This document shows positions 1-57,390 of a stretch of 64,000 bases of DNA, piece by piece. The notes under the pieces are model-generated. The model ran no database searches, was not told where the DNA came from, and was given only the letters and a program-made list of their open reading frames with translations. Within the stretch, counting starts at the first letter, position 1; every line of letters begins with the position of its first letter. The translations under genes and the position numbers were made by a program. The stretch lies in the sequence record JX128257; one strand, 5' to 3'. This DNA is from Escherichia phage ECML-4.

Positions 1-284
1 GTTTAGCAACTGCGGATGCTGACCTTCTGAGCGCCAAGGGGGATATCTATATCCCTGACAACCAATATCGAAACAAACAAGTTTGTGATGGTATACAGAA
101 AATGATAGACAGCGGAGTCAAAGTCGTTCTGTTCCCACCAGAAATCCCATGGAAGGATATCAACGATATGGTCCATCCGGATAAGGGGAACATCCCTATT
201 CGTGATTTGCTTCAGATCATAGCCAAGAACGTGTATCAGGGGTTGGCAGCGTCCCTGAGGTTTTCAGATTTGAGGAAGATATAA
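1..284 (+). CDS. hypothetical protein, 5'-truncated at window edge (C-terminal fragment only)
   Basis: Frame is open from the window start to the stop at 282-284; the 60 aa ORF in the track is its tail. No confident domain call. Confidence 0.45.
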   Translation, partial: LATADADLLSAKGDIYIPDNQYRNKQVCDGIQKMIDSGVKVVLFPPEIPWKDINDMVHPDKGNIPIRDLLQIIAKNVYQGLAASLRFSDLRKI

Positions 285-389
285 GAACTGACCTAAAACT
301 TTTTAACTCAAAATATTTCCCTCCAGGCCTCGTTCTATGAGGCCTCTTAAAATACTTCAAAAATATTTTAAAATTTTATTGAAAAAGAC

Positions 390-418
390 TTTACTCTTCA
401 ATAATGATGCACTATTAT
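390..418 (+). promoter_or_regulatory. candidate early sigma70-like promoter (TTTACT, 17 bp spacer, TATTAT) with upstream A-tracts
   Basis: Seen in sequence upstream of the 496 gene; shares a TTCAATAA spacer motif with the site at 26943-26971. Confidence 0.35.
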
Positions 419-495
419 AGTTCACATAGGGCGGTACACAACACCCCGCCGAATGAAAAGTGAAACGAACCAACTACATTATGAGGAATTACATC

Positions 496-984
496 ATGGC
501 TACTACCAAAACTCTGATCACCAACGGCACCATCTCTTTTGAACTGAACACTGAAGTTGCAAAAGTTGAAATGTTCCGCATCGCTCAGGCAGCTGGCTTC
601 ACTGGTGGCAAAACTTCCTTCATGAACCTGCTGAACGGCAAAGTCAAAGCGACCAACGGCTTCACCCTGGTTGAGCAGGTTGTGGTTGATAAAGCAGTCG
701 TCGCAAAAACCGCTGACAAAGTTGGCATGCTGAAAGACCTGGGACACGACATCCACGTTGTTGAAGCTACGACCGAAACTTACGGCACCATCACTGTCGG
801 AAAAGGGCGCATCCAGCTGAACCCGCTGAACAACGGAACCTTCTCTGTGATGGTATTCCCGAAAAAAGGTTACGACAACAGCGATATCGTGAAAGCCGCT
901 GGCGGTGAAGCGAAATCCCAGTATGTCAAAATGGGTAAACTGAGCGCAGACGCCGTTGAAACTCTGGTGAGCAAACTGGCATAA
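496..984 (+). CDS. hypothetical small protein, probably highly expressed
   Basis: ATG at 496 with GAGGAA SD 7 nt upstream (track start 460 is an in-frame GTG); strongly biased codon use; hairpin at about 995-1012 after the stop. Confidence 0.7.
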   Translation: MATTKTLITNGTISFELNTEVAKVEMFRIAQAAGFTGGKTSFMNLLNGKVKATNGFTLVEQVVVDKAVVAKTADKVGMLKDLGHDIHVVEATTETYGTITVGKGRIQLNPLNNGTFSVMVFPKKGYDNSDIVKAAGGEAKSQYVKMGKLSADAVETLVSKLA

Positions 985-1038
985 TCCACAAGGGGAGGCA
1001 ACTCCCCTCCTTATTCAGATTTTTGGTAGGAGATTATC

Positions 1039-1227
1039 ATGGGACGTCCGATTATCCACGCTTCAGAAGGTGCTATCTGGGTTATAACCAGAATCCCTGA
1101 AGTTCATTTCCCTCAGTTTCAAGAAGAAATCGAACAAGCAATGCTAACGATCCTGGAAAAATACGGGTACGACACTGAAGTCCGTGAAGCCTTCAACGAA
1201 ATTATGCCTGTGGTGGTTGCGCGATGA
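1039..1227 (+). CDS. hypothetical protein
   Basis: ORF with AGGAG SD; start/stop overlap with the next ORF. Confidence 0.45.
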   Translation: MGRPIIHASEGAIWVITRIPEVHFPQFQEEIEQAMLTILEKYGYDTEVREAFNEIMPVVVAR

Positions 1228-1529
1228 AACTGACCCTCGAACAAATCGGCGAAGCAACATGCCAACTCCTGAAGGAAAAGACAGGCAAGCAGTGGAAGCA
1301 TCAGTTGTTCAAAGATCACCCTGATGGCGTAGGGGCGATCATGATTGATAGCGAAGAGTCAACAGCCGTCCTCTTCTACTGGCAAGGTACTGGCCGCTGG
1401 TCGGCGCAGACTTATGGTGGGAATAAGCAATCTAACTCCGTGCCTTCACCAGTGGAGGCATATGAAAGTCTGAAGAGAGGCATTCAAATGCAGATCGTTA
1501 GTCTGAACACTCTTTTGTCAACTATCTAA
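1224..1529 (+). CDS. hypothetical protein
   Basis: ORF with ATGA start/stop overlap with the preceding gene. Confidence 0.5.
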   Translation: MKLTLEQIGEATCQLLKEKTGKQWKHQLFKDHPDGVGAIMIDSEESTAVLFYWQGTGRWSAQTYGGNKQSNSVPSPVEAYESLKRGIQMQIVSLNTLLSTI

Positions 1530-1561
1530 CATAACAGTTCCTCAAGTCAGTTCACTTTCAC

Positions 1562-1602
1562 TTTAAATACCTCTGCAATCACTGCGGAGGTATTTTCTTA
1601 TG
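1562..1602 (+). promoter_or_regulatory. late-promoter-like motif TTTAAATA overlapping a 13 bp hairpin that sequesters the endolysin SD
   Basis: Inverted repeat AAATACCTCTGCA / TGCGGAGGTATTT (about 1565-1595) contains GGAGG 10 nt before the ATG at 1600. Confidence 0.45.
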
Positions 1603-2394
1603 GCCATTCTAAAACTTGGCAACCGAGGTTCTGAAGTCAAATCACTTCAGCAAAGCCTCAATAAAATCGGGTTCTCTCTTGTAGCTGATGGCATATTTGG
1701 CAAAGCGACCGAGAATGCTGTCAAATCCGTTCAGGCAGGTGCCGGACTGGTGATTGATGGTATTGCAGGTCCAAAAACCTTCTATGCTATCCGTAATGCC
1801 GGAGACGCTCATCAGGAACATCTTACCGAAGCCGACTTAGTTGACGCAGCGCGTGAACTTGGTGTCGAACTGGCCAGCATGAAAGCTGTTAACCAGGTCG
1901 AATCTCGGGGAACGGGTTTCACCAAAACAGGTAAGATCAAAACTCTGTTCGAGCGCCACATCATGTATAAGAAAGTGGCGGCTAAATTCGGACAAGCAAG
2001 AGCCAATGCTCTGTACCAACTTTACCCAACATTGGTTAACCCCAATTCTGGTGGCTATATCGGCGGAGACGCGGAGTTGGAACGCCTTCAGGGTGCAATC
2101 GCCCTTGATGAGGATTGCGCGTACGAGAGTGCGTCCTACGGCTTATTCCAGATCATGGGGTTCAATTGCCAGATATGTGGTTATCCGAACGCCAAAGAAA
2201 TGTTCACAGATTTTCTGACTGGTGAACGCGCACATCTTCTGGCATTTGTGAAATTCATCAAAGCTGACGCCAATATGTGGAAAGCATTGAAGAACAAAAA
2301 TTGGGCTGAGTTCGCCCGTCGGTACAATGGTCCAGCATATGCCAAGAACCAGTATGACACCAAACTAGCGGCGGCATACAAGAGTTTCTGTTAA
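1600..2394 (+). CDS. endolysin: N-terminal peptidoglycan-binding domain plus C-terminal N-acetylmuramidase-like catalytic domain
   Basis: N-terminus matches PG_binding_1 repeat pattern (SEVKSLQQSLNKIGF...DGIFGKATENAV...DGIAGPKT); C-terminus carries GLFQIMG-type muramidase motif. Confidence 0.85.
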   Translation: MAILKLGNRGSEVKSLQQSLNKIGFSLVADGIFGKATENAVKSVQAGAGLVIDGIAGPKTFYAIRNAGDAHQEHLTEADLVDAARELGVELASMKAVNQVESRGTGFTKTGKIKTLFERHIMYKKVAAKFGQARANALYQLYPTLVNPNSGGYIGGDAELERLQGAIALDEDCAYESASYGLFQIMGFNCQICGYPNAKEMFTDFLTGERAHLLAFVKFIKADANMWKALKNKNWAEFARRYNGPAYAKNQYDTKLAAAYKSFC

Positions 2395-2398
2395 CAAA

Positions 2399-2420
2399 AG
2401 GCCGGAAACGGCCTTTTTCT
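2399..2420 (+). terminator. rho-independent terminator after endolysin
   Basis: AGGCCG-GAAA-CGGCCT stem-loop followed by TTTTTCTTT. Confidence 0.7.
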
Positions 2421-2499
2421 TTATCTAACATACAGGTATGCTGGGCACGTCGCTTAATTAAAGGTGTCGACAACCCCTGTAGATATAGGAAGGTTCAAC

Positions 2500-3339
2500 A
2501 TGCAATCTGCGTCTAAAGTTGTATCCATGAAGCCAGCGAAGACAAAATCTGCTCGTAAGAAAGACACCATCCAGAAGGAAGAAGACTGGATGAAGTTTTC
2601 CAAAGGCGATTTCAAAATTGCTCCGTTCAATGGCCTCTCAGAAAATCAGAACCTCGCATATCAATCCGCACTCAATGAACATCTCACTATCGCTATCGGT
2701 CCGGCAGGTACAGGCAAATCCTATTGTGGTGCGTCCGCTGCTGCCAAGCATCTGATTGACAAAACCATCAACAAGATTATCATCACGCGTTCTCCTTTAC
2801 CGACTGGAACCACAGCGGGGTTCCGGCCTGGTGACACATATGAAAAGCTGATGCCTTATTTGATGCCGCTCATACAGACATTCAAAAAGGTTCTCAAAAC
2901 AGATACGGGTTCCGACGGTTTCTTCAACTATCTGTGGGAGAAACGCATCATAGAAATTCAAGACCTTGAAACTGTGAAGGGGATGACTTTCGATGATTGT
3001 TTCCTGATTATCGAAGAGGCGCAGGAATGCGATATGGAGCAACTGAAAAACTTATTGACTCGTGCTTCAGATTCTTCGTACATCTTCGTGAATGGAGATA
3101 TCAAACAGTCTAACAAGCGACTGCGTGATAGTGCGTTACAGACGTATGTGGATTCCTTTAAAGACTTCAACAACAAGCTGGAAACAGGTTCTTTGCAAAT
3201 TGACGGTGTAGAAATCGGAGATGAATATCCTGAGTGGGTTCAGCCATTCAGCATCATCGAATTCGATAAGTCTGATCGTAATGGTCGCGGTAACTTCACC
3301 CGCCTGATGTTAGAAATTAACGACCTGTACAACATTTAA
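2500..3339 (+). CDS. phoH: PhoH-like ATPase
   Basis: Walker A GPAGTGKS and PhoH-family layout; ATG at 2500 with AGGAAGG SD (track start 2464 is GTG). Confidence 0.85.
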   Translation: MQSASKVVSMKPAKTKSARKKDTIQKEEDWMKFSKGDFKIAPFNGLSENQNLAYQSALNEHLTIAIGPAGTGKSYCGASAAAKHLIDKTINKIIITRSPLPTGTTAGFRPGDTYEKLMPYLMPLIQTFKKVLKTDTGSDGFFNYLWEKRIIEIQDLETVKGMTFDDCFLIIEEAQECDMEQLKNLLTRASDSSYIFVNGDIKQSNKRLRDSALQTYVDSFKDFNNKLETGSLQIDGVEIGDEYPEWVQPFSIIEFDKSDRNGRGNFTRLMLEINDLYNI

Positions 3340-3423
3340 ATACCACACGAACTTCCCCGTCGCCTTCAATCCATGGAGGCGACGTATAATAACAGCCTGC
3401 ATTAACACAAACCGAGGATCGCT

Positions 3424-5706
3424 ATGATTAACATCATAAAGCGGGACGGATCTTCTGTCCCCTTTGACATTGAAAAACTCCACACTGTTCTTGAACGTGC
3501 CTGTGAAGGATTAGAAGGAGTTTCGGTGTCTGAGGTGGAAGCAGCATCGAAGATTCAGTTCACAGACAATATGAAAACCGAACGCATTCAGGATATTATC
3601 ATCCAAGCGGCGGCTACATTGATTTCTGTAGAAAAACCCAACTACCAATATGTTGCTGCCCGTCTGAAATCGTATGACCTGCGCAAAGTCGTCTATGGGC
3701 GATACAAGCCACCTCATTTGCTTGATATATTCGCTAAAAACATCAAGCAGGGCGTTTATGATCGTGAATTCCTCGAACTCTATACGAAAGAAGAATTTGA
3801 AGAACTGAACACGGTCATCAATCACAAACGCGACAAGAATTTTACTTGGGCGGCTATGGGCCAGCTCACGCAAAAATATCTTTTGCGCGATCGCTCAGCA
3901 GACAGCAAAGTATATTACGAAACGCCTCAAGTCATGTATATGGCGATCGCGATGGCCCTGTTCTCTGCATGGGATAAAGAAACTCGCCTGACGATGGTGA
4001 AGAAATTTTATGAATACGCCAGTACAGGTAAATTCAGTCTTCCAACACCCATCATGTCCGGCGTTCGTACCCCAACCCGCCAATTCAGTTCTTGTGTTCT
4101 TATCAAAACCGGTGACACTTTGGACTCAATCAATGCTACAGCCAAAAGTATTGTTGATTATGTATCCAAACGCGCTGGGATCGGATTTGATGTCGGAGCA
4201 ATTCGTGGCATCGGTAGCCCTATCCGAAAAGGTGAAATGGTGCACACAGGTCTGGTTCCTTTCATAAAATATCTGACTGGGGCATTAAAGTCTTGCTCTC
4301 AAGGCGGTATTCGTGGCGGATCAGCAACTTGCTATATCCCTATCTGGCATTATCAATTTGATGATGTTGTGGTCCTGAAGAACAACCGTGGTCTTGAAGA
4401 GAACCGTGAACGCCGTATCGACTATGGTATTCAGATCAACCGCGTCATGTTCGAACGTCTGGTGAACAAACAACCCCTGTATTTGTTCGATCCGAAAGAC
4501 AACCGCGATATGTACGAAGCGTTTTTCGCAGATGTCGATAAGTTCCGTACCCTGTACGACAACATGGTCAAAGCTGCTGATGCTGGTTTGGTTCGTGCCA
4601 AGAAGATGAATGCGGAAGAAGTATTCCAGATGTTGTTGGATCAGCGTTCAGATACAGGCCGCATCTACATCGCGTTTGTCGACCACATGAACCAGTACAG
4701 CCCATTCAATCTAGACACAATCTATAGTTCTAATCTGTGTCTGGAGATTGCGCTTCCTACTCGTGAATTCCAACAGTACGACGATGAAGAAGGTCGGATC
4801 GCTCTGTGTACTTTGGCCTCTTTTAACCTGACGGCGTTTGAAGACCCGACAGAAATGGAAGACGTTGCATATGTCTTGGTTTCGGCTTTGGATATGCTGC
4901 TGGAATACCAAGATTATCCAGCACGTCAAGCCCGTCTGGCTGTAGAAGAATATCGTCCTCTGGGTATCGGTGTCGTCAACGTCGCGCATTTCTTCGCCAA
5001 GAACTTCACGGGGTATGGATCTCCTGTTGGGTTAGAACTCCTGGACAAGTGGATGGCGCACCTGCATTTCTATCTGGTAAAGGCTTCGAATCGTCTGGCC
5101 ATGAAGTTTGGGGCATGTAAGAAGGAAACCATTCATCGTTCTGGTAAGATAACAGCCGACCTTCAACCGTTGCCGCTGGATATCCTCCCCAATGGTAAAA
5201 AGCCGGAAGGTATGGCATACGGCCTTGACTGGGACGGTTTGAAAGACTCTCTGCGTTGCCATGGTATCCGCAATGCTACTCTCTTGGCGATAGCACCAAC
5301 TGAAAGCTCCTCTCAGGTGCTGAACGCCACGAATGGTATAGAGCCACCCAAAGGCCTCATCAGTATCAAAGGCAGCAAGGATGGCGTCTACAAGCAGATC
5401 GTTCCGGACGTTGAAACCCTTGGTCCTCTATATGACCTGAAATGGAATCTGTCTTGTATCGACTATTTGAAAACAGCGGCGGTCGCCCAGCGTTGGGTTG
5501 ACCAATCCATCAGCGTTAATACACATTATGATCCAGAGAAATTCCCAGACGGGAAGATCCCGCGCTCTCTCATGATGCAGGATATTCTGTCTTTCTACAT
5601 GTGGGGTGGTAAAACTCTGTATTACAACACCAACAAAGACTCTAAGGAAGATGAAGAGTTGAAACAAATTGAAGATCCGAATCACTGTGACACCTGTGTT
5701 GTCTGA
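3424..5706 (+). CDS. nrdA: ribonucleotide reductase class Ia large subunit
   Basis: 760 aa; N-terminal ATP-cone (MINIIKRDGSSVPFDIEKL) and alpha-chain length and architecture; GAGGA SD. Confidence 0.95.
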   Translation: MINIIKRDGSSVPFDIEKLHTVLERACEGLEGVSVSEVEAASKIQFTDNMKTERIQDIIIQAAATLISVEKPNYQYVAARLKSYDLRKVVYGRYKPPHLLDIFAKNIKQGVYDREFLELYTKEEFEELNTVINHKRDKNFTWAAMGQLTQKYLLRDRSADSKVYYETPQVMYMAIAMALFSAWDKETRLTMVKKFYEYASTGKFSLPTPIMSGVRTPTRQFSSCVLIKTGDTLDSINATAKSIVDYVSKRAGIGFDVGAIRGIGSPIRKGEMVHTGLVPFIKYLTGALKSCSQGGIRGGSATCYIPIWHYQFDDVVVLKNNRGLEENRERRIDYGIQINRVMFERLVNKQPLYLFDPKDNRDMYEAFFADVDKFRTLYDNMVKAADAGLVRAKKMNAEEVFQMLLDQRSDTGRIYIAFVDHMNQYSPFNLDTIYSSNLCLEIALPTREFQQYDDEEGRIALCTLASFNLTAFEDPTEMEDVAYVLVSALDMLLEYQDYPARQARLAVEEYRPLGIGVVNVAHFFAKNFTGYGSPVGLELLDKWMAHLHFYLVKASNRLAMKFGACKKETIHRSGKITADLQPLPLDILPNGKKPEGMAYGLDWDGLKDSLRCHGIRNATLLAIAPTESSSQVLNATNGIEPPKGLISIKGSKDGVYKQIVPDVETLGPLYDLKWNLSCIDYLKTAAVAQRWVDQSISVNTHYDPEKFPDGKIPRSLMMQDILSFYMWGGKTLYYNTNKDSKEDEELKQIEDPNHCDTCVV

Positions 5707-45207: not shown

Positions 45208-45519
45208 TTACGCCTCCACTTCTTCATCAGGAAAATAAGGGCGTAAATCCCCAATTAATTTAGGGAAGAGGGCAAACCCGAACAGATTAAAAGAACGCAT
45301 GGTCCCAACCATACCAACATCATCCAATTCGGTAACGTCAGAAAGGGCACACAACGGTATCCACACGTCTTCTTGTCCTTCGTAATTTACGAAGGCAACT
45401 TCCTCTTTGATGAATCGAGGACACAGAATATCAAACAGCCAATAGACGTATGCCAGTAATGAGAGACTGCGGAAATATACAAACATGGTGAACCCCTCAC
45501 AGGTTTGGAGGGAATTCAC
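45208..45519 (-). CDS. hypothetical protein
   Basis: ORF. Confidence 0.4.
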   Translation of the reverse strand: MNSLQTCEGFTMFVYFRSLSLLAYVYWLFDILCPRFIKEEVAFVNYEGQEDVWIPLCALSDVTELDDVGMVGTMRSFNLFGFALFPKLIGDLRPYFPDEEVEA

Positions 45520-45528
45520 CCTCCAGAT

Positions 45529-46860
45529 TTATAGGCTTAATGCCTTTTCAAGATCATCTAAATCATCATTGTAGAGATCAATGTCTTGTTTGTTATTTAA
45601 TTCTTCTCTTTGTTCTTCCAGATTCTTTATCTGATTCAACAATCGTTCACGTGCGTCTAACGTGATTGATGATAAAGACATCTTGAATAATTCATCAAGA
45701 TCACCATCAAAATCTGGATAATCCGTTTGAAACAACGCTTTCAGTTCTGTAATGCTGCGACGCATATCCGTAACCACAGCCCAACTGATGAATAATGCAC
45801 GGTTGTTCAGGCGATGAATTTTATCAGTCATCTCCTTTAACAGGTATTGACGACGGTCTTCATAACGGATCAAACGATAGTTGAAGAAGGAAAGCAGCAT
45901 CTCCTTCCACCCAGAATAACGTCGGATGACACCATCTTCATCCCATGCCGTCCAGACGGGTTTGTTCGCAGAGTATAGTTTGAACATCTGCTCGATTTGT
46001 GCATCATCCAGCTTAGACAATTCACCACGTTTGAACACGACAGTAATGTCCCAGCCGTCTTCGGTCGTGTCATTGGCGTATTCAGTGAGCAAACCCGCCT
46101 TATACAACGGCAACAGAACTTTGGTCTCATACGATTTAGCGAACCAACCAATTGGGACCTCGGTGATGTGAAGGGTTGTAGCATTGATGCGTTTGAAGAT
46201 GCCGCGACTGTATGCTCTTCCTTCCTCAGTATAGCCTGTCTCTCCTTTATATCCATTCCAGTACGGTTTTAAGTCCGTAGGGTCTTCGCCACGGAGAAGT
46301 GCTCTCAGAGCGCCGAGGACTGATTTAACGCAATGGCATGGGGTGTCCGTTGAGTACCCAGATCCGATACCATTAATTCCGTTCACCAAGAACATGGGAA
46401 TAACAGGCAAAAAGAACTTTGGTTCCAATTGTTCTTCACCCAAGTAGTTGTAATCCAAAATCCCCTCATCTTCCTTACGGAATATTTTACGGATAACATC
46501 GGATACAGAAACAGAAATGTAACGAGCAGACGATGCATCACGTCCCATGATAGAACCAAATTGACCATCACGGTCAAAGTATGGAATATTGTTCGTACCA
46601 GGAAACGCCTGAGCCATGTTCACAATCGTATTGCCCATGTTCTCACCACCGGACTTGTAGTTGGTACGAGCGGCGGCGAACATACCCAGACGATCAACAA
46701 TCTCTTCCTTGCCATATTCCAATGCAGTGAAAAGAATTTTGCGCTGACTTGGTTTCAAACTGTCAATCAACTGAGGTATTTGACGGATGCTGTTGAACAC
46801 AGAAAATGCCTTGTGATCATTATTGACATAATCCGTGACATTGATACTTTGAGCGACCAT
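45529..46860 (-). CDS. DNA topoisomerase II medium subunit (GyrA-like, T4 gp52-like)
   Basis: Follows the GyrB-like gene with a 1 nt gap; ATG at 46860 (the track ORF start at 46932 would overlap the upstream gene). Confidence 0.75.
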   Translation of the reverse strand: MVAQSINVTDYVNNDHKAFSVFNSIRQIPQLIDSLKPSQRKILFTALEYGKEEIVDRLGMFAAARTNYKSGGENMGNTIVNMAQAFPGTNNIPYFDRDGQFGSIMGRDASSARYISVSVSDVIRKIFRKEDEGILDYNYLGEEQLEPKFFLPVIPMFLVNGINGIGSGYSTDTPCHCVKSVLGALRALLRGEDPTDLKPYWNGYKGETGYTEEGRAYSRGIFKRINATTLHITEVPIGWFAKSYETKVLLPLYKAGLLTEYANDTTEDGWDITVVFKRGELSKLDDAQIEQMFKLYSANKPVWTAWDEDGVIRRYSGWKEMLLSFFNYRLIRYEDRRQYLLKEMTDKIHRLNNRALFISWAVVTDMRRSITELKALFQTDYPDFDGDLDELFKMSLSSITLDARERLLNQIKNLEEQREELNNKQDIDLYNDDLDDLEKALSL

Positions 46861-46861
46861 C

Positions 46862-48772
46862 TTATTCTCCCTCTGTTTCAAACAAACAAACATCACTAAA
46901 CCAGGTTTTGCGGTAATCGGCGGCCTCATCACCGAAGCCGTTCTTCAGTGATTCTTTGTAGTTGTCATCCAACGTGACCGTCGTAGTATACGCATCCAGA
47001 TTGTTTAGAATACGTTTGAAGTCTTCAGTGCTGTTACCACCAAGACCTTTCAGATATTTCTTCTTCGTAATCTTCTTGGCGTCAGGGGTTTTTAAAAATT
47101 CTTCATATTCCGTATTGCTCATAAACTCATACATCGTTTTACCACACCAAATACGCATGTATGGTGTGCGCAGGAGTTTCAGCCTACCCTGACGGACGTA
47201 CTCCGGCCAATATGTGCAATACAGAGTAATCAACAAACCACGGATGTGAATGCCATCATCGTCCGCATCGGTGGCTACAACAGTCTGTGGGTAGCGGGTG
47301 ATATCAATCGGCTGACCTGGGACTGCGCCTCCATGAATCGTGCAAAGATTCTTGAACTCCTCATTATTCATTACCTTTGATCGCGGATTGTTTAAACAAT
47401 TGATGAATTTACCACGCAAAGGGAATAATCCAATCTTTTTAGTATCACGGGCGTTCAGGATAGGATTGGACGCGCTGTCACCTTCAGTCAATAACAGAGA
47501 GCACCCACTGCGATCACCACGGGCGGTCGCCGGATAATACTTCTCTATCTCACGATAATCCCGTTTGCTAATATCCTTCTTGGCCTTTTCAAATTCAGCA
47601 TCATCTTGGTCGTTACGCAAGGCGGCCAATTCTTTGCTCAGGCCAGCTGTGACAAACTCCAGAGCCTTCCGGATTAGTTTATCGCTGGGTTTATAGGTCG
47701 TACCAAACTGGCTAACAGGAGTCGTCATACGCTCCTTGGTTTGGCTATCAAAACGAGGGTTGTTGATATCAGCCGAGATGAAAAGCATCATATGGTTTTT
47801 AATCATAGAAGGCTTCAGATCAGTCTTAAACTTTTTCACCAATTGTGGGCGAATCGCATTCACGATCTGGTCAGCAACGTAATCCACATGAGGACCACCG
47901 ATATGGGTGGCAATGCTGTTCACATATGATGCATGAATAAACGTCCCTTGTGAAGGAGCAACAGCAACAGACCACTCCTCTGTTTCATCAACAGAAGAAC
48001 CTTGGCAAAAGTAATCCACAAAATGGCCAAATCGGTCGATACGGATTTGTTTCCCGTTCAGAATGACTTTCAGGCGCGGGTTACAAGCAGCCACTTCAAA
48101 TGCGCGGCGATAGATCATCAACAAGTTATTTTGATCAAGACCTTTGACACCCAGACGCGCATAATCAGGTATCCATGCGATAGACGTCCCAGGGGCATTC
48201 AAATTACTGATCACCGGATTAGAACGTTTGCTCAAATTGTCTTCAAATGTTTGAGTGTAAGACTTCTTCCCGTCATTTGTCGTGACACGGAACCATTTTG
48301 AAAATACGTTGACCAGTGAAGCCCCTTCACCGTTCTGACCACCTGATTTTTTGTTATTGTATTCTTCATCGTCGTCGTTGAAGTTGCTACCCGCATAGAG
48401 GGAGCCAAATAACATTTCAGGGAGCCATTCCTTTGTCTCCCCGTGTTTAACAACCGGAATACCCCCATTGTCAGCCACGATGATCTGACCATTCATAGGA
48501 GAAACGGTAATGGTGATTTCTGTGAGGCTTTTACCTTCTGGCGTTTTGCTATGATCTACAGAGTTGGTGATAATTTCATCAAACTGTTTAATCAATGCAG
48601 GAGAATATTCAAAATTATCCTTGAATATAACTTGATCTTTTATTGGATCATATATCCAAGTTGTTCCAACGGCTGAACGGATACTACCCAGATGACGCTC
48701 TGGGCGAAGAAGGATATGCTCTATGTGAGTGAGCTTTTTGTATTTTCGTTCAATATCAATCATATTAGACAT
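46862..48772 (-). CDS. DNA topoisomerase II large subunit (GyrB-like ATPase plus TOPRIM; T4 gp39 and gp60 equivalent fused)
   Basis: GHKL ATPase motifs (VADNGGIP, GGQNGEGAS) and TOPRIM motifs (LTEGDSA, DADDDG) in a single 636 aa ORF. Confidence 0.85.
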   Translation of the reverse strand: MSNMIDIERKYKKLTHIEHILLRPERHLGSIRSAVGTTWIYDPIKDQVIFKDNFEYSPALIKQFDEIITNSVDHSKTPEGKSLTEITITVSPMNGQIIVADNGGIPVVKHGETKEWLPEMLFGSLYAGSNFNDDDEEYNNKKSGGQNGEGASLVNVFSKWFRVTTNDGKKSYTQTFEDNLSKRSNPVISNLNAPGTSIAWIPDYARLGVKGLDQNNLLMIYRRAFEVAACNPRLKVILNGKQIRIDRFGHFVDYFCQGSSVDETEEWSVAVAPSQGTFIHASYVNSIATHIGGPHVDYVADQIVNAIRPQLVKKFKTDLKPSMIKNHMMLFISADINNPRFDSQTKERMTTPVSQFGTTYKPSDKLIRKALEFVTAGLSKELAALRNDQDDAEFEKAKKDISKRDYREIEKYYPATARGDRSGCSLLLTEGDSASNPILNARDTKKIGLFPLRGKFINCLNNPRSKVMNNEEFKNLCTIHGGAVPGQPIDITRYPQTVVATDADDDGIHIRGLLITLYCTYWPEYVRQGRLKLLRTPYMRIWCGKTMYEFMSNTEYEEFLKTPDAKKITKKKYLKGLGGNSTEDFKRILNNLDAYTTTVTLDDNYKESLKNGFGDEAADYRKTWFSDVCLFETEGE

Positions 48773-48819
48773 CGGCCTATCCCGTCAATGGTAAACACAA
48801 GATTATGTATGGGGTCGGC

Positions 48820-52885: not shown

Positions 52886-52912
52886 CAAAGAAAAGGAGGC
52901 CGAAGCCCCCTC
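52886..52912 (-). terminator. rho-independent terminator after rIIB (minus strand)
   Basis: GGGGGC-UUCG-GCCUCC stem (with one G-U pair) followed by UUUUCUUUG on the minus strand. Confidence 0.65.
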
Positions 52913-52930
52913 TTTTATGTCAGTTCGCGG

Positions 52931-54514
52931 TTACTTGTACAGACCGTCAACGTCAATAGATTTATGTTGGCGGTTGTATTCCGTGGTATAGTCATCCAAC
53001 ACGAGATATTCACAGCAGCGGATTTTACTAGAACCGTAATCATCAGTGATAGACACGATGTCTTTCGGGTTCAGTTTACAACGCACAACCCGCTGGCCCA
53101 GGCTACCGAAACATTGTTTCAGATACGCCAGAGAACAAACGTGAAGACCATAGGAGCACAGGTCTTTGTTGTTATCGTTCACGAATGAGCGAGCCATCCG
53201 GACGATAGTGCCAGGTGCGTTGCTGACTTTACCTGTGCGCTTATCCATATAATTTCCGCGAACGGATTTGTATAGAATAATGTCGCCGTCTTCATGAATC
53301 TCAATGTCTGAGTATGCCATGAATTCATAGATCCGACCAGACTGAACCAGAGCAGCGCTCGGGTTTTGGAACATCTTGTCAAGGAAACGGCCCAAGCGTT
53401 CCAAGTTCGGATAATCGCCTTTTAATGCCAAAGCCAAAATGCGTTTGGCAACGGAAGTTCCGGTGATATCATATCCACCCCAGCGAACACGGTTGTCTGA
53501 AAGATCAACCATGCCTGTAGTGAATTGTTTGATGGCTTCACGCGGTTTCATCAGAGTGTAAGCTGTTTTGACGTCACGATTTTTAATCGCTTCAACAATA
53601 CGGTCATACGCCTGGTGGCTCGTTGTGATCGTTTCCGGTTTACCATCGACCACAATCACGATACTTTCCGGCAAAATCATGATCTGGTGTTCGTTCAGGA
53701 ACACAGACAGTTCTTTTTCATTAAATGAATTCTGAGTTTGCTTGTCGCCTGTTTCTTCAACAACTGCAACCGTCTTGACCACGAATAATACGGATGACAA
53801 TGCCAGACGAAGTGTACGGCCTAAAATTGCATCAAAGTAACCCACGCGCCGACGGGCATCAAGGGAACCGCGCATCGGATATGTTTCACCGTCATGCTGT
53901 ACGCTGATTTTCACACCATCATTGACTTTAACCACACCATCAACCAATGCAGTAGCCAGTTCTGCTAACGGCGAAATATTTTCTTCATTGAAGCGGCTTG
54001 ACCGAGTTTCTAACGGTTTCAGTTCTTCGCTTCTGAAAAGTTTGGCCTGAATAGCAGCAGAGCTATCATAACGCATACAGATAAACACTGTTTGGTTTTC
54101 CAGGAAACGGCCAACATACCATTCTTCGTCTTCAGAATCGACAGACACCGAACCTTCCAGAACTTCATAGGTGTCGGGGATTTTCCCTTCTTCAGTCAAT
54201 TCTTTAATTGGCGAAATCACGACCACGTTATTAGATTCTTTGATGATACGAACCATCAGGGCGCGGGCAATTGTTTTGGCACTGACACCATAAACTGATG
54301 CCAGAGAAGAATTGCTTTCACCTTTGCTGCTCTTGGTTTGTATTTCTTGAATCTGTTCAGTGGTCAGAGACTTAATCGAAGCCGGATCCACTCCCAGTTC
54401 TTTATCCGACACGCGTTGTATCATTGAGCGCGGTACGCCCAATTCACTGGCTATTGAACTTTGACTTCTGTTCTCATTCAACAGCTTGAGAATACGTTTT
54501 TCTATAGCATTCAT
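52931..54514 (-). CDS. rIIB: rIIB-like protein
   Basis: Directly downstream of the rIIA-like gene; N-terminal helix-turn-helix-like segments. Assignment is mainly by synteny. Confidence 0.55.
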   Translation of the reverse strand: MNAIEKRILKLLNENRSQSSIASELGVPRSMIQRVSDKELGVDPASIKSLTTEQIQEIQTKSSKGESNSSLASVYGVSAKTIARALMVRIIKESNNVVVISPIKELTEEGKIPDTYEVLEGSVSVDSEDEEWYVGRFLENQTVFICMRYDSSAAIQAKLFRSEELKPLETRSSRFNEENISPLAELATALVDGVVKVNDGVKISVQHDGETYPMRGSLDARRRVGYFDAILGRTLRLALSSVLFVVKTVAVVEETGDKQTQNSFNEKELSVFLNEHQIMILPESIVIVVDGKPETITTSHQAYDRIVEAIKNRDVKTAYTLMKPREAIKQFTTGMVDLSDNRVRWGGYDITGTSVAKRILALALKGDYPNLERLGRFLDKMFQNPSAALVQSGRIYEFMAYSDIEIHEDGDIILYKSVRGNYMDKRTGKVSNAPGTIVRMARSFVNDNNKDLCSYGLHVCSLAYLKQCFGSLGQRVVRCKLNPKDIVSITDDYGSSKIRCCEYLVLDDYTTEYNRQHKSIDVDGLYK

Positions 54515-54546
54515 CTTGTAGTTCTCACTGTGGGGTAATGGGGCTA

Positions 54547-57288
54547 TTATGCCCCGAGAATACGTTTTGAAATAGCCTTCACAAATCTAGTGGCATCTTC
54601 AATCGCATTATGCGCCGTTGGCTGATATTTTGACATCATGAATTTCACCAAACGATGACATTCAACTCGGTATCGGTTTTTGGCCTTTTGCTTTTGAGAT
54701 ATAGTGCTAGTGACCTTTATCTCATCAAATCCTTCAGCAGTTAATTTTTCATTCAATAAATCAACAACTTGAGTTAACTGGTTACAGGCGCGGAAAAATC
54801 TCGTAGTTGAGAAAGGCATTTCTATACGATAATGTAATTCCTCAACAGCCTTGCGGAAATAACCGTACCCCGATCCAGACGGGTTTCGTTTGGCCAGCAT
54901 ACGAACAACCTTCCATTCTTCTTCAGTGATTTGTTGTTTCGCATAACCGATGATTGCTTTTGCCCTGTGTTGATGATGAGCATAGCCATCCGTAACTTCT
55001 CCATGGGAATCAATCAACAGCTTGGCACCATAATCAATGCGATGAGACATGATGTTTATGCCCTTGCGAAGTTTCAGGAGTTTCTTAGATTCAAGCGCCT
55101 GAAATTCATCTTTATAATGCTCAAGCAACATATCAAACACTGCGTCAATGGGGATGAATACTTCTGGGAATTTCTTCATCATCGGAACAGATTTACGACG
55201 CGCAAGAACGATTGTTGGATGCGCTCCCAGCAAATCAAACATGTTTTCGTTTCCATTCTCGCCGAACTTCGTTCTTTCCATCGCTTCACGCAAATGTCCA
55301 GCCGTGGATTGTCGTAAGGTATTACCATGAATTTTATGGATACCTTCTCGGCCAGATACTTCGATATATACGATCTTTTTGCCTGAATCAATAATATCTG
55401 AAACGGTTTTTCCATCCAATTCATAAACGCTGTCGAAGTTAAATGAATTGTAATGGAAACTAAACATCCCAGGATCTTTTTCAACGGTCGGGCGAACATA
55501 TTCCATTTCATGCATGAAATAAACTTCATCCGGATTGAATAAATCGCCAAAAACCTCGATCAGTTTATCGGCAAAGACCAGGTAGTCCGGTGTTGTTTCT
55601 TGTACACCGATCCATGATTCAAAATAAGACTTCAATTCCTCATGGTTGGTGAATGATTCTTTATGTGCCGCCAGCTGATTCCGATTACTGAAATAATTTT
55701 CATTCGGTTTGACGACGATAACGACATTGAAGTTATTACGTGCTGTTTGTATCTTCAGGTTTCGAGCACGATTCGAGTTATCAATAATAACAGCAATTTT
55801 TGATTTAGATTTCAACCAATTTCCGACAGAGTTCACATAAATGCTGTCGTGTACTACACCGTCGTCGTGTACTTCAATTTCGTAAGGACTACCAATAGAC
55901 CGGAAAGGTGCATCCACAGAGTAATCGCGCACGACGTCCGGCGCTCCGATATAACGGAACGTGCCTTTGTAGAAACGGTTATCTGCAGGAAATTCTCGCT
56001 CCACTAATTTACGGAAACCGCTACCGAACATATCGGTCAATTGAGCCTTCTTCATATAAAGCATAAGAGGACCCATAGATTCGGCCTGGCGAAGTTCATA
56101 CATCTTCGCCTGCATAATATTGTCAGCCACATATTTGAACACTCGGTTCAGGCTTTCACGGGTGAACTCGTCATATGACAAGTCTTCACGTGATGGAGGA
56201 ACATTCAATTCTCCAAGTTCAAAGAATGTATAGGAACTCGGGAATTTCTCCAGCACCGAACGTATTTCAGAATCCAATTGCTCAAGATCTATCGGATAAG
56301 AAACCCCGCCCATAACAGCATAGTGGGTATTATCAGAATCAGACTTCGGCTGAATATACGTGTTGCCCACACGGTTTTCAAAATTGATGTCCTGCCAGCG
56401 GAAAGAATAACTGGCATTTTCAACCTTCGGGCGCATTGATGGGCGCATAACTCGACCCAGACGGACCAGTTCTTGTTCAAATGCAGTAAATCGCTGATTC
56501 TTTACAGGCACTTTAACAGTCAGACCATTGAACTCATCAGTGTCTTCTGGTTTCGGATCACGGGTGTCCAAATCCTTGGTGATCAGGTCCACAGTAGGAA
56601 TCCTGTCCGCATTCAGATACATAAGGAAGCGATACAGTTTACCTTCATAACGACTTTCTACAGTAAATGAGTCCGACACTGCAAATGGGGATTTAGAACC
56701 CAGCCCGAACGCGCCGATCTGCCCGTCGTCGTCCTCTTTGGTGCTATGGAAGAGTGTTGTGTACAAACCAGGTCCACGGATGATCTCGCCGTCCTCAGCG
56801 CGGAATACCAACACCCCATTGTAATAACCAGGCGTCCCAATAACAGCAGTGCTGTCAGGGATTTCATCTTCCTTCACAACAATGTTGCCTTCGACAAGCA
56901 CTTCATCTTCCCGCGCTGCGATAGGTTCACCGATAATCATTTCTAACGGAAGGCCAATCCCATAATCCTTGATTTCCAGCCATGGTTCCATAACATCAGG
57001 TAAATGGACCACAACGGGCGTCCCTTTGGGAGCAAGATGCTTGCTGTATCTTTGGGGCATAGGGGTAAGAGGGGCATAATGGGACGGCAACCAACGCTGT
57101 TGGCGATCACGCATATTATGCGAGTCTATACCGTTACATAACGTCTCACGCAAAGATGCGGCCTCTTTATATTTGTAGAGACTTGAGAACAATGTTTCAA
57201 ATAATTTATCCGTCATCTTGACATTAAATGTCTGTCCGACGATAGTGGAAGAAGAGCGCACGAAATGCTCAGACTTGCGCATTTTCAT
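54547..57288 (-). CDS. rIIA: rIIA-like protein with GHKL-type ATPase domain
   Basis: 913 aa; GHKL motifs (DYGIGLP, GAFGLGSKSPF) in the N-terminal third, as in T4 rIIA. Confidence 0.65.
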   Translation of the reverse strand: MKMRKSEHFVRSSSTIVGQTFNVKMTDKLFETLFSSLYKYKEAASLRETLCNGIDSHNMRDRQQRWLPSHYAPLTPMPQRYSKHLAPKGTPVVVHLPDVMEPWLEIKDYGIGLPLEMIIGEPIAAREDEVLVEGNIVVKEDEIPDSTAVIGTPGYYNGVLVFRAEDGEIIRGPGLYTTLFHSTKEDDDGQIGAFGLGSKSPFAVSDSFTVESRYEGKLYRFLMYLNADRIPTVDLITKDLDTRDPKPEDTDEFNGLTVKVPVKNQRFTAFEQELVRLGRVMRPSMRPKVENASYSFRWQDINFENRVGNTYIQPKSDSDNTHYAVMGGVSYPIDLEQLDSEIRSVLEKFPSSYTFFELGELNVPPSREDLSYDEFTRESLNRVFKYVADNIMQAKMYELRQAESMGPLMLYMKKAQLTDMFGSGFRKLVEREFPADNRFYKGTFRYIGAPDVVRDYSVDAPFRSIGSPYEIEVHDDGVVHDSIYVNSVGNWLKSKSKIAVIIDNSNRARNLKIQTARNNFNVVIVVKPNENYFSNRNQLAAHKESFTNHEELKSYFESWIGVQETTPDYLVFADKLIEVFGDLFNPDEVYFMHEMEYVRPTVEKDPGMFSFHYNSFNFDSVYELDGKTVSDIIDSGKKIVYIEVSGREGIHKIHGNTLRQSTAGHLREAMERTKFGENGNENMFDLLGAHPTIVLARRKSVPMMKKFPEVFIPIDAVFDMLLEHYKDEFQALESKKLLKLRKGINIMSHRIDYGAKLLIDSHGEVTDGYAHHQHRAKAIIGYAKQQITEEEWKVVRMLAKRNPSGSGYGYFRKAVEELHYRIEMPFSTTRFFRACNQLTQVVDLLNEKLTAEGFDEIKVTSTISQKQKAKNRYRVECHRLVKFMMSKYQPTAHNAIEDATRFVKAISKRILGA

Positions 57289-57361: not shown

Positions 57362-57390
57362 ATAGAAAAAAGCCTCCAAAAGGAGGCTTA
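57362..57390 (-). terminator. rho-independent terminator (minus strand)
   Basis: AGCCTCC-TTTT-GGAGGCT stem followed by TTTTTTCTATT on the minus strand. Confidence 0.7.

Follow-up and report, generated by a model that had tools for sequence, protein, structure and literature searches.

Identity of the gene pair

A stretch of 64,000 nucleotides from Escherichia phage ECML-4 (sequence record JX128257), referred to here as the window, encodes on its minus strand two adjacent genes between positions 52,931 and 57,288, which had been interpreted in a preliminary description as enlarged homologs of the rIIA and rIIB genes of phage T4. The locus raises the question of whether the two products are genuine rII proteins, in which segments they exceed their T4 counterparts, and whether these segments reflect adaptation to different host defenses, as had been proposed. 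Taken as a whole, the locus is in all probability a Vi01-like rIIA-rIIB pair, in which a conserved scaffold carries lineage-specific accretions and which presumably has a role in counter-defense. What is added here is confined to the anatomical map of the Vi01-type rII proteins and to the resemblance of rIIA to Hsp90. For the window itself the significance is small: the pair belongs to the annotated core genes of a well-studied phage group.

A check of the open reading frames (ORFs) agreed with the coordinates and the lengths in amino acids (aa) that had been given for both genes:

54547..57288, minus strand: rIIA gene, 913 aa; 913 of 913 residues identical to Vi01_001 (YP_004327372), annotated as 'RIIA lysis inhibitor'
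52931..54514, minus strand: rIIB gene, 527 aa; 524 of 527 residues identical to Vi01_002 (YP_004327373), annotated as 'RIIB lysis inhibitor'

The 4358-nt region shares 99.5% identity with nucleotides 1-4358 of Salmonella phage Vi01 (Ackermannviridae, Kuttervirus), and at least 80% of it is covered in 161 phage records, Vi01 included. The neighboring genes agree with the Vi01 annotation and follow the gene order of Vi01, which places the phage in Kuttervirus. Both proteins have full-length matches to PHROG families, rIIA to phrog_3661 (RIIA; 917 positions, 1679 bits) and rIIB to phrog_3803 (RIIB; 530 positions, 1016 bits), which lie far above chance level in these profile comparisons. Table 2 of the phiSH19 report lists RIIA with 913 aa and RIIB with 527 aa (PMC3220722), and a 2024 comparison numbers rIIA and rIIB as 1 and 2 among the core genes of the Vi01-like group (PMC10892097). 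Because of the Vi01 annotation, the published sizes, and the core-gene listing, the gene pair has to be regarded as already known. It is the Vi01-type rIIA/rIIB pair that has been annotated in Vi01 and related phages since 2010-2011 and whose sizes have been in print since 2011, and its identity as the rIIA-rIIB pair of a Vi01-like phage is very likely.

Domain anatomy of rIIA

The T4 proteins that were fetched have the lengths quoted before (725 aa for rIIA and 312 aa for rIIB), and the proteins of the window are indeed longer, with 913 and 527 aa, respectively. For both proteins, colinear alignment extends beyond the GHKL ATPase motifs, and similarity restricted to these motifs is ruled out. 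In rIIA, residues 15-404 align with T4 rIIA 9-315 in BLASTP (23% identity, E 2e-24), and residues 1-412 align with T4 rIIA 1-321 in hhalign with a family profile of 49 sequences (E 1.7e-56). When the C-terminal halves alone were compared by hhalign with clade profiles, residues 493-733 aligned with T4 397-603 (probability 94%, E 9.8e-8). The T4-type family phrog_612, which spans rIIA residues 173-738 (E 1e-79), agrees with this C-terminal alignment. The following segments were assigned, with confidence of the AlphaFold2 model given as predicted local distance difference test (pLDDT):

56500..57240, minus strand: aa 17-263, GHKL (Bergerat-fold) ATPase domain, from hhalign, a PDB profile search, and Foldseek
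57124..57147, minus strand: GHKL motif I, E48-x3-N52-x2-D55, invariant in 49 sequences
57037..57105, minus strand: aa 62-84, insertion 1, not in T4-type rIIA; hhalign gap, loop predicted at low confidence (pLDDT 51-67)
56953..56967, minus strand: GHKL motif II, D108-x-G110-x-G112, invariant in 49 sequences
56764..56925, minus strand: aa 122-175, insertion 2 of about 54 aa, between motifs II and III (ATP lid); hhalign gap, four predicted β-strands with pLDDT 86-92
56692..56715, minus strand: GHKL motif III, G192-x2-G195-L-G197-S-K199; as G192-x2-G195-L-G197-x-K199 invariant in 49 sequences
56053..56499, minus strand: aa 264-412, second domain (transducer/middle-like), in which the alignment with T4 rIIA reaches T4 residue 321
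56185..56193, minus strand: invariant S366-R367-E368 (SRE) loop, from the 49-sequence alignment
55090..55812, minus strand: aa 493-733, T4-alignable C-terminal portion, from hhalign against T4 397-603 and phrog_612
54550..55089, minus strand: aa 734-913, helical C-terminal tail without detectable T4 similarity; with 16% mean pairwise identity the most variable part within the clade

The GHKL ATPase motifs described for rIIA before are confirmed: motifs I-III are intact, and the nucleotide-binding residues E48, N52, D55, D108, G110, G192, G195, G197, and K199 are invariant in the 49 family sequences. Structure prediction is in line with this, as the AlphaFold2 model of rIIA (pLDDT 87.9) matches the ATPase structures of Hsp90, MutL, and GyrB. 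The notion of an extra domain in rIIA, on the other hand, has to be replaced by two insertions inside the GHKL fold and a longer, variable C-terminal half. In GHKL proteins, the ATP lid is the stretch between the G1 and G2 boxes. Motif spacing was compared among 120 homologs, including 41 scorable members of the 43 of Ackermannviridae type. Motifs I and II are separated by 60-62 aa in the Ackermannviridae-type proteins versus 34-35 aa in T4 and most metagenomic relatives, and motifs II and III by 84-87 aa (96 aa in one member) versus 30-36 aa in typical rIIA, while the relatives from Vibrio phages have intermediate spacings. The part behind the invariant SRE loop comprises 547 residues compared to 448 in T4.

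The 913-aa protein has no match in Pfam. Among the 49 family members, 17 match the Pfam domain HATPase_c, and its absence from the present rIIA is attributed to the insertions, which interrupt the domain. Searches of PDB sequences with the single rIIA or rIIB sequence gave nothing significant, and PADLOC and NCBIfam returned only sub-threshold matches (a sacsin ATP-binding-like domain, TmtA, and a CasR HTH). An intein or homing endonuclease was considered as the origin of the rIIA insertions and rejected, since no such domain is matched and the insertion length is constant across the clade.

Relationship of the rIIA ATPase to the Hsp90 family

In profile and model comparisons, the ATPase domain of rIIA is closest to Hsp90/HtpG. 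The N-domain aligns with residues 5-181 of Escherichia coli HtpG, i.e., with the whole N-domain including the signature helix (hhalign, probability 97%, E 6e-11), and in this helix rIIA LYSNKEIFLRELISNASDA is aligned with HtpG LYKYKEAASLRETLCNGIDS. When the rIIA family profile was searched against PDB sequences, all of the best 60 of 126 matches were Hsp90-family proteins, the E-values being 1.2e-9 for TRAP1 and 2.9e-9 for HtpG. Likewise, the best Foldseek matches of the rIIA model are HtpG, TRAP1, Hsp90, and GRP94 (E 3e-11 to 1e-9), with alignments that extend over N- and middle domains, and MutL, GyrB/ParE, and the topoisomerase II ATPase of T6 rank below the Hsp90 family at about 1e-5. Fragments of TRAP1 consisting of the N- and M-domains (targets of 365-472 aa) match the model with template modeling (TM) scores of 0.44-0.53, which is above what the N-domain alone could yield.

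The invariant rIIA loop LNVPPSRE, which contains R367, is aligned with LPLNVSRE of HtpG, the catalytic-arginine loop. By itself, the alignment of this middle-domain region with HtpG is weak (hhalign, P = 0.012, probability 3.6%), and a correspondence of the two loops is suggestive. None of the 49 rIIA family members matches the Pfam family HSP90 (PF00183), and beyond the N-domain neither an Hsp90 C-terminal dimerization domain nor any other Hsp90 sequence match was detected in rIIA. The C-terminal half is rII-specific and unrelated to Hsp90. Because the dimerization-domain match is missing, rIIA is taken to carry an Hsp90-like ATPase module rather than to be an Hsp90. A scan of genome contigs for HtpG returned only relatives with at least 89% identity, which are useless for a diverse Hsp90 profile. 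In the literature, rIIA has been described as a GHKL ATPase with a variable C-terminus (PMC7824862), and a paper tying rIIA to Hsp90 or to MORC/MutL was not found in the literature searched.

Domain anatomy of rIIB

The rIIB protein can be divided into N-terminal helix-turn-helix (HTH) segments, a middle module, and a core:

54389..54514, minus strand: aa 1-42, HTH1, the candidate additional HTH; CENP-B_N, helices 3-13, 18-25, and 29-40
54254..54388, minus strand: aa 43-87, HTH2, putative counterpart of the single T4 HTH; HTH_38, MAFFT alignment judged by eye
53663..54253, minus strand: aa 88-284, predicted β-rich middle module of 197 aa, clade-restricted; AlphaFold2 model and phmmer
52967..53662, minus strand: aa 285-516, conserved core; PF26926 in a precomputed table, hhalign against T4
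53141..53158, minus strand: C453-x2-G456-L457-H458 of the core, invariant in 10 distant rIIBs

Two N-terminal HTH segments had been recognized in rIIB before, and both are matched in Pfam, the first by CENP-B_N (aa 7-39, 23.5 bits, cut-off 21.2) and the second by HTH_38 (aa 47-85, 32.7 bits, cut-off 27), with seven helices predicted within aa 3-86. As a feature that T4 lacks, however, only one of them holds, whereas the other has a counterpart in T4 rIIB, which carries HTH_7 at aa 7-44. In a three-sequence MAFFT alignment of these short segments, judged by eye and unscored, the T4 HTH lines up best with HTH2, so that HTH1 would be the extra one. The first HTH, searched with the rIIB family profile, matches the PAI subdomain of the Sleeping Beauty transposase (E 1.7e-4), consistent with a bipartite, transposase-like DNA-binding head.

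The structure of rIIB was predicted as well (AlphaFold2, pLDDT 79.8, predicted TM score 0.70). The middle module, which makes up the bulk of the rIIB extension over T4, is modeled as two small β-barrels, one at about aa 88-160 and the other at about aa 201-248, which are separated by a helix (180-192), and pLDDT in the barrels is about 76-92 per 10-residue block and mostly 84-92. In a phmmer search against 1.84 billion representatives, real matches to the module were confined to rIIBs of Ackermannviridae type. A protein of 5204 aa with 15 matching stretches (P0168) was rejected as a relative, since it is a repetitive protein rich in Thr, Gly, Ala, and Asp and the matches are a repeat or composition artefact. 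Foldseek with the rIIB model against PDB returned nothing at E ≤ 1e-3. Tandem Agenet/Tudor/KOW matches to the model are weak (TM below 0.3) and are a hint of small β-barrels in the middle module. In comparison with Vi01 rIIB, there are only three substitutions, of which D128G and K202E lie within the variable, fast-evolving middle module and K429Q lies in the core (53909-53911 for aa 202, 54131-54133 for aa 128, and 53228-53230 for aa 429, all on the minus strand).

The core is shared with T4: residues 286-513 align with T4 rIIB 89-311 in hhalign (E 9.7e-52), and residues 285-513 align with T4 88-311 in BLASTP (35% identity, E 1e-42). PF26926 is listed for all rIIB homologs, and the core has tblastn matches in 2814 phage records. 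In addition to the Cys/His motif, F377, G410, K416, G435, Y464, P483, D485, K497, R499, and Y503 are invariant in the 10 distant rIIBs; the invariance of the core residues spans rIIBs of Tevenvirinae, Ounavirinae, Vequintavirinae, N4-like, Vibrio, and Streptomyces phages. The set of invariant Cys/His and Asp/Lys/Arg residues may make up a site for catalysis or metal binding. A solved structural relative of the core was found neither by Foldseek against PDB nor by profile search. NCBI labels two clusters of Ackermannviridae-type rIIBs (P0012 and P0014) as proteins of Escherichia coli, with 180 member sequences, and of Salmonella enterica, which suggests phage contigs within bacterial assemblies, by contamination or carrier state.

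Proposed function of the rII pair

According to the proposed mechanism, rIIA would be a two-domain GHL-type ATPase with an Hsp90/HtpG-like ATP-binding domain, intact nucleotide-binding residues, and a variable C-terminal half, and rIIB would be a DNA-binding-type protein in which an N-terminal HTH is joined to a conserved core of some 230 aa that the whole family shares. The length beyond T4 is made up by the two GHKL insertions and the longer C-terminal half of rIIA together with the duplicated HTH and the 197-aa module of rIIB. Acting jointly and early in infection, rIIA and rIIB would form an ATP-driven counter-defense module, so that the infected cell is not shut down by the RexAB-type abortive-infection systems of prophages.

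By homology with the rII proteins of other phages, an anti-Rex-type function of the present pair is likely. The rII mutants of T4 and T6 are excluded by RexAB of phage lambda, and RexAB sensitivity has been reported specifically for rIIB mutants of T6 (PMC10312443). Knockdown of RIIA or RIIB in T4, MM02, EdH4, SUSP1, and N4 leads to sensitivity to lambda RexAB; these rII modules stem from five genera and share below 40% identity, and knockdown has no effect in Rex-free hosts (PMC11879866). RIIB of T6 alone sets off a gasdermin/CARD defense system from Lysobacter (PMC10312443).

Several points weigh against the proposed mechanism. A convincing promoter was not found upstream of rIIA, where the nearest sigma-70-like match overlaps the start codon, and the literature searched yielded no experiment on rII genes of Ackermannviridae. 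An ATPase activity, DNA binding, and a complex of rIIA with rIIB are predictions from sequences and structural models.

A more specific version, in which a divergent two-domain ATPase of Hsp90 type (rIIA) and the site in the rIIB core act as a chaperone-like ATP clamp plus effector, is conceivable but unlikely. In this version, rIIA would have family-wide an HtpG-like catalytic arginine loop (R367 in the present protein), and the 54-aa lid insertion of Ackermannviridae would alter the coupling of ATP closure to the partner. For its part, rIIB would be more than an adaptor, as its invariant Cys-x4-His together with Asp/Lys/Arg could be catalytic or metal-binding, and it would be anchored on DNA or on a host factor through its lineage-specific tandem HTH and barrel module. 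If true, this would open a concrete biochemical way into the rII mechanism, a question 70 years old. More generally, the Hsp90-like ATPase and the invariant SRE loop of rIIA and the Cys/His motif of rIIB would be entry points to this mechanism in any rII-carrying phage.

Size variation and the origin of the extra segments

The description of the proteins as enlarged is correct against T4 but not in general, as rIIA has 816-868 aa and rIIB 375-677 aa in other groups:

T4: rIIA 725 aa, rIIB 312 aa
Streptomyces phage Moab: gene in the rIIA position 641 aa, annotated as 'hypothetical protein'; rIIB 337 aa
Erwinia phage M7 (Ounavirinae): rIIA 816 aa, rIIB 375 aa
FFH2 (Vequintavirus): rIIB 401 aa
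Vi01-type (present window): rIIA 913 aa, rIIB 527 aa
Vibrio phage K475: rIIA 868 aa, rIIB 590 aa
N4-like Klebsiella phage VLCpiP4a: rIIA 838 aa, rIIB 677 aa
RB43: natural RIIA-RIIB fusion, single protein of 1049 aa

Since rII sizes vary this widely (312-677 aa for rIIB), T4 lies near the small end. An alignment of ten distant rIIBs revealed a single conserved core of about 230 aa, to which each lineage has a different N- or C-terminal addition. Within the Vi01-type clade, the rIIB barrels have a mean pairwise identity of 29-33% versus 69% in the core, and the C-terminal half of rIIA has 16-25% versus 60-67% in the GHKL core.

It is possible, if short of probable, that the extra segments are neutral or structural accretions such as linkers, decorations, or oligomerization aids that play no part specific to defense, T4 representing the minimal version. 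This would fit the different additions round the rIIB core in each lineage (312, 337, 375, 401, 527, 590, and 677 aa), the range of rIIA lengths among homologs (632-980 aa), and the occurrence of natural rIIA-rIIB fusions (RB43, phrog_609). However, the insertion length is constant in the 41 clade members that could be scored (60-62 and 84-87 aa, with the one exception of 96 aa), and the lid insertion as well as the rIIB barrels are predicted to be well folded; together, this argues for some retained function of the extra segments. That the extra segments determine specificity in an arms race with defenses other than lambda Rex, in line with the adaptation to different host defenses suggested in the preliminary description, is rather doubtful. 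The segments concerned would be the lid insertion and the C-terminal half of rIIA and HTH1 and the β-rich module of rIIB, and they could broaden the set of systems countered or allow escape from systems that sense rIIB. Such selection on the surface of rIIB would follow from the sensing of rIIB by the gasdermin/CARD system (PMC10312443), and the arms-race idea would agree with the lack of relatives of the rIIB module outside the clade among the 1.84 billion representatives searched. The clade-specific segments also diverge fastest within the clade, but relaxed constraint predicts this equally, so the divergence fits either explanation. Moreover, rII modules of different size and divergent sequence all counter the same lambda RexAB (PMC11879866), which makes variation in size and sequence unnecessary to explain the target range, and no defense system is linked to the extra segments here.

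Quite improbable is a third explanation, according to which rIIB is chiefly a regulator of transcription or DNA transactions, the rII pair has its role in the DNA metabolism of the phage, Rex sensitivity being secondary, and a different DNA target accounts for the doubling of the HTH in the Vi01 type. In favor of this, the tandem HTHs are similar to the bipartite DNA-binding domains found in transposases and resolvases, topoisomerase II genes are located near rII in both phages (see below), and rIIB has been placed among the specific transcription factors by Iyer et al. (2021; PMC7824862). Against this, rII knockdown is without effect in Rex-free hosts of five genera of phages (PMC11879866), and the HTH is missing from several rIIB lineages (Moab, P0043, P0045, and P0046), which indicates that DNA binding is not the activity that defines the family. 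A Vi01-like pair with a conserved scaffold, lineage-specific accretions, and a presumed counter-defense role is retained as the best explanation.

Gene arrangement and genomic surroundings

The genes rIIA and rIIB lie on the same strand, rIIA upstream, with a gap of 32 bp, and they are bracketed by two terminator-like hairpins:

57370..57389, minus strand: hairpin with U-run upstream of rIIA, closing the preceding gene; -14.5 kcal/mol, z -4.6
52891..52914, minus strand: hairpin directly past the rIIB stop, with a 10-bp stem, UUCG loop, and U-rich tail; -18.3 kcal/mol, z -2.9

Because of the short gap, the co-orientation, and the bracketing hairpins, rIIA and rIIB probably constitute a discrete two-gene unit. 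M7, K475, and the N4-like phage share the co-oriented arrangement of rIIA followed by rIIB. Natural RIIA-RIIB fusions of about 1050 aa (phrog_609; RB43, an Escherichia phage, BFVD Q56C47, 1049 aa) support the view that rIIA and rIIB act as a single physical unit.

Genes for the large and medium subunits of topoisomerase II are located about 4 kb downstream of rIIB (about 45500-48800, minus strand, as placed by correspondence with another record), and T4 has its genes for topoisomerase II subunits (39/60 and 52) on either side of rII. As topoisomerase II genes are thus near rII in both phages, this neighborhood is conserved between the T4 family and Ackermannviridae. On a larger scale, the GC skew of the window flips its sign near 32 kb, being positive at 12-32 kb and negative at 32-64 kb; a reversal of the direction of transcription could be one reason for this. 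The ORFs examined at 50-60 kb, in the part with negative skew, are on the minus strand throughout. Neither a tRNA gene (ARAGORN) nor an Rfam family above the gathering threshold was found in the whole window.

Comparison with known rII systems

The closest known system is that of Vi01, in which order, spacing, and neighbors of rIIA and rIIB are identical to those of the present pair. In other groups of phages (N4-like Schitoviridae, Ounavirinae, Vequintavirinae, Vibrio, and Streptomyces phages), the rII modules share the rIIB core, the GHKL domain of rIIA, and the gene order, but they have flanking additions of their own, and the middle module of Vi01-type rIIB was not found in them by sequence. 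With T4, the present rIIA shares the GHKL motifs, the SRE loop, colinear homology, and an adjacent rIIB. In contrast to T4 rIIA, it has 26 additional aa between motifs I and II, 54 in the ATP-lid region, and about 100 more behind the SRE loop, and the C-terminal tails of the two proteins are not alignable. In rIIB, T4 has one HTH and about 35 residues in place of the 197-aa β-rich module. The outcome is an exact map of the differences between the Vi01 type and T4, in which T4 stands as a small outlier in a family that collects additions.

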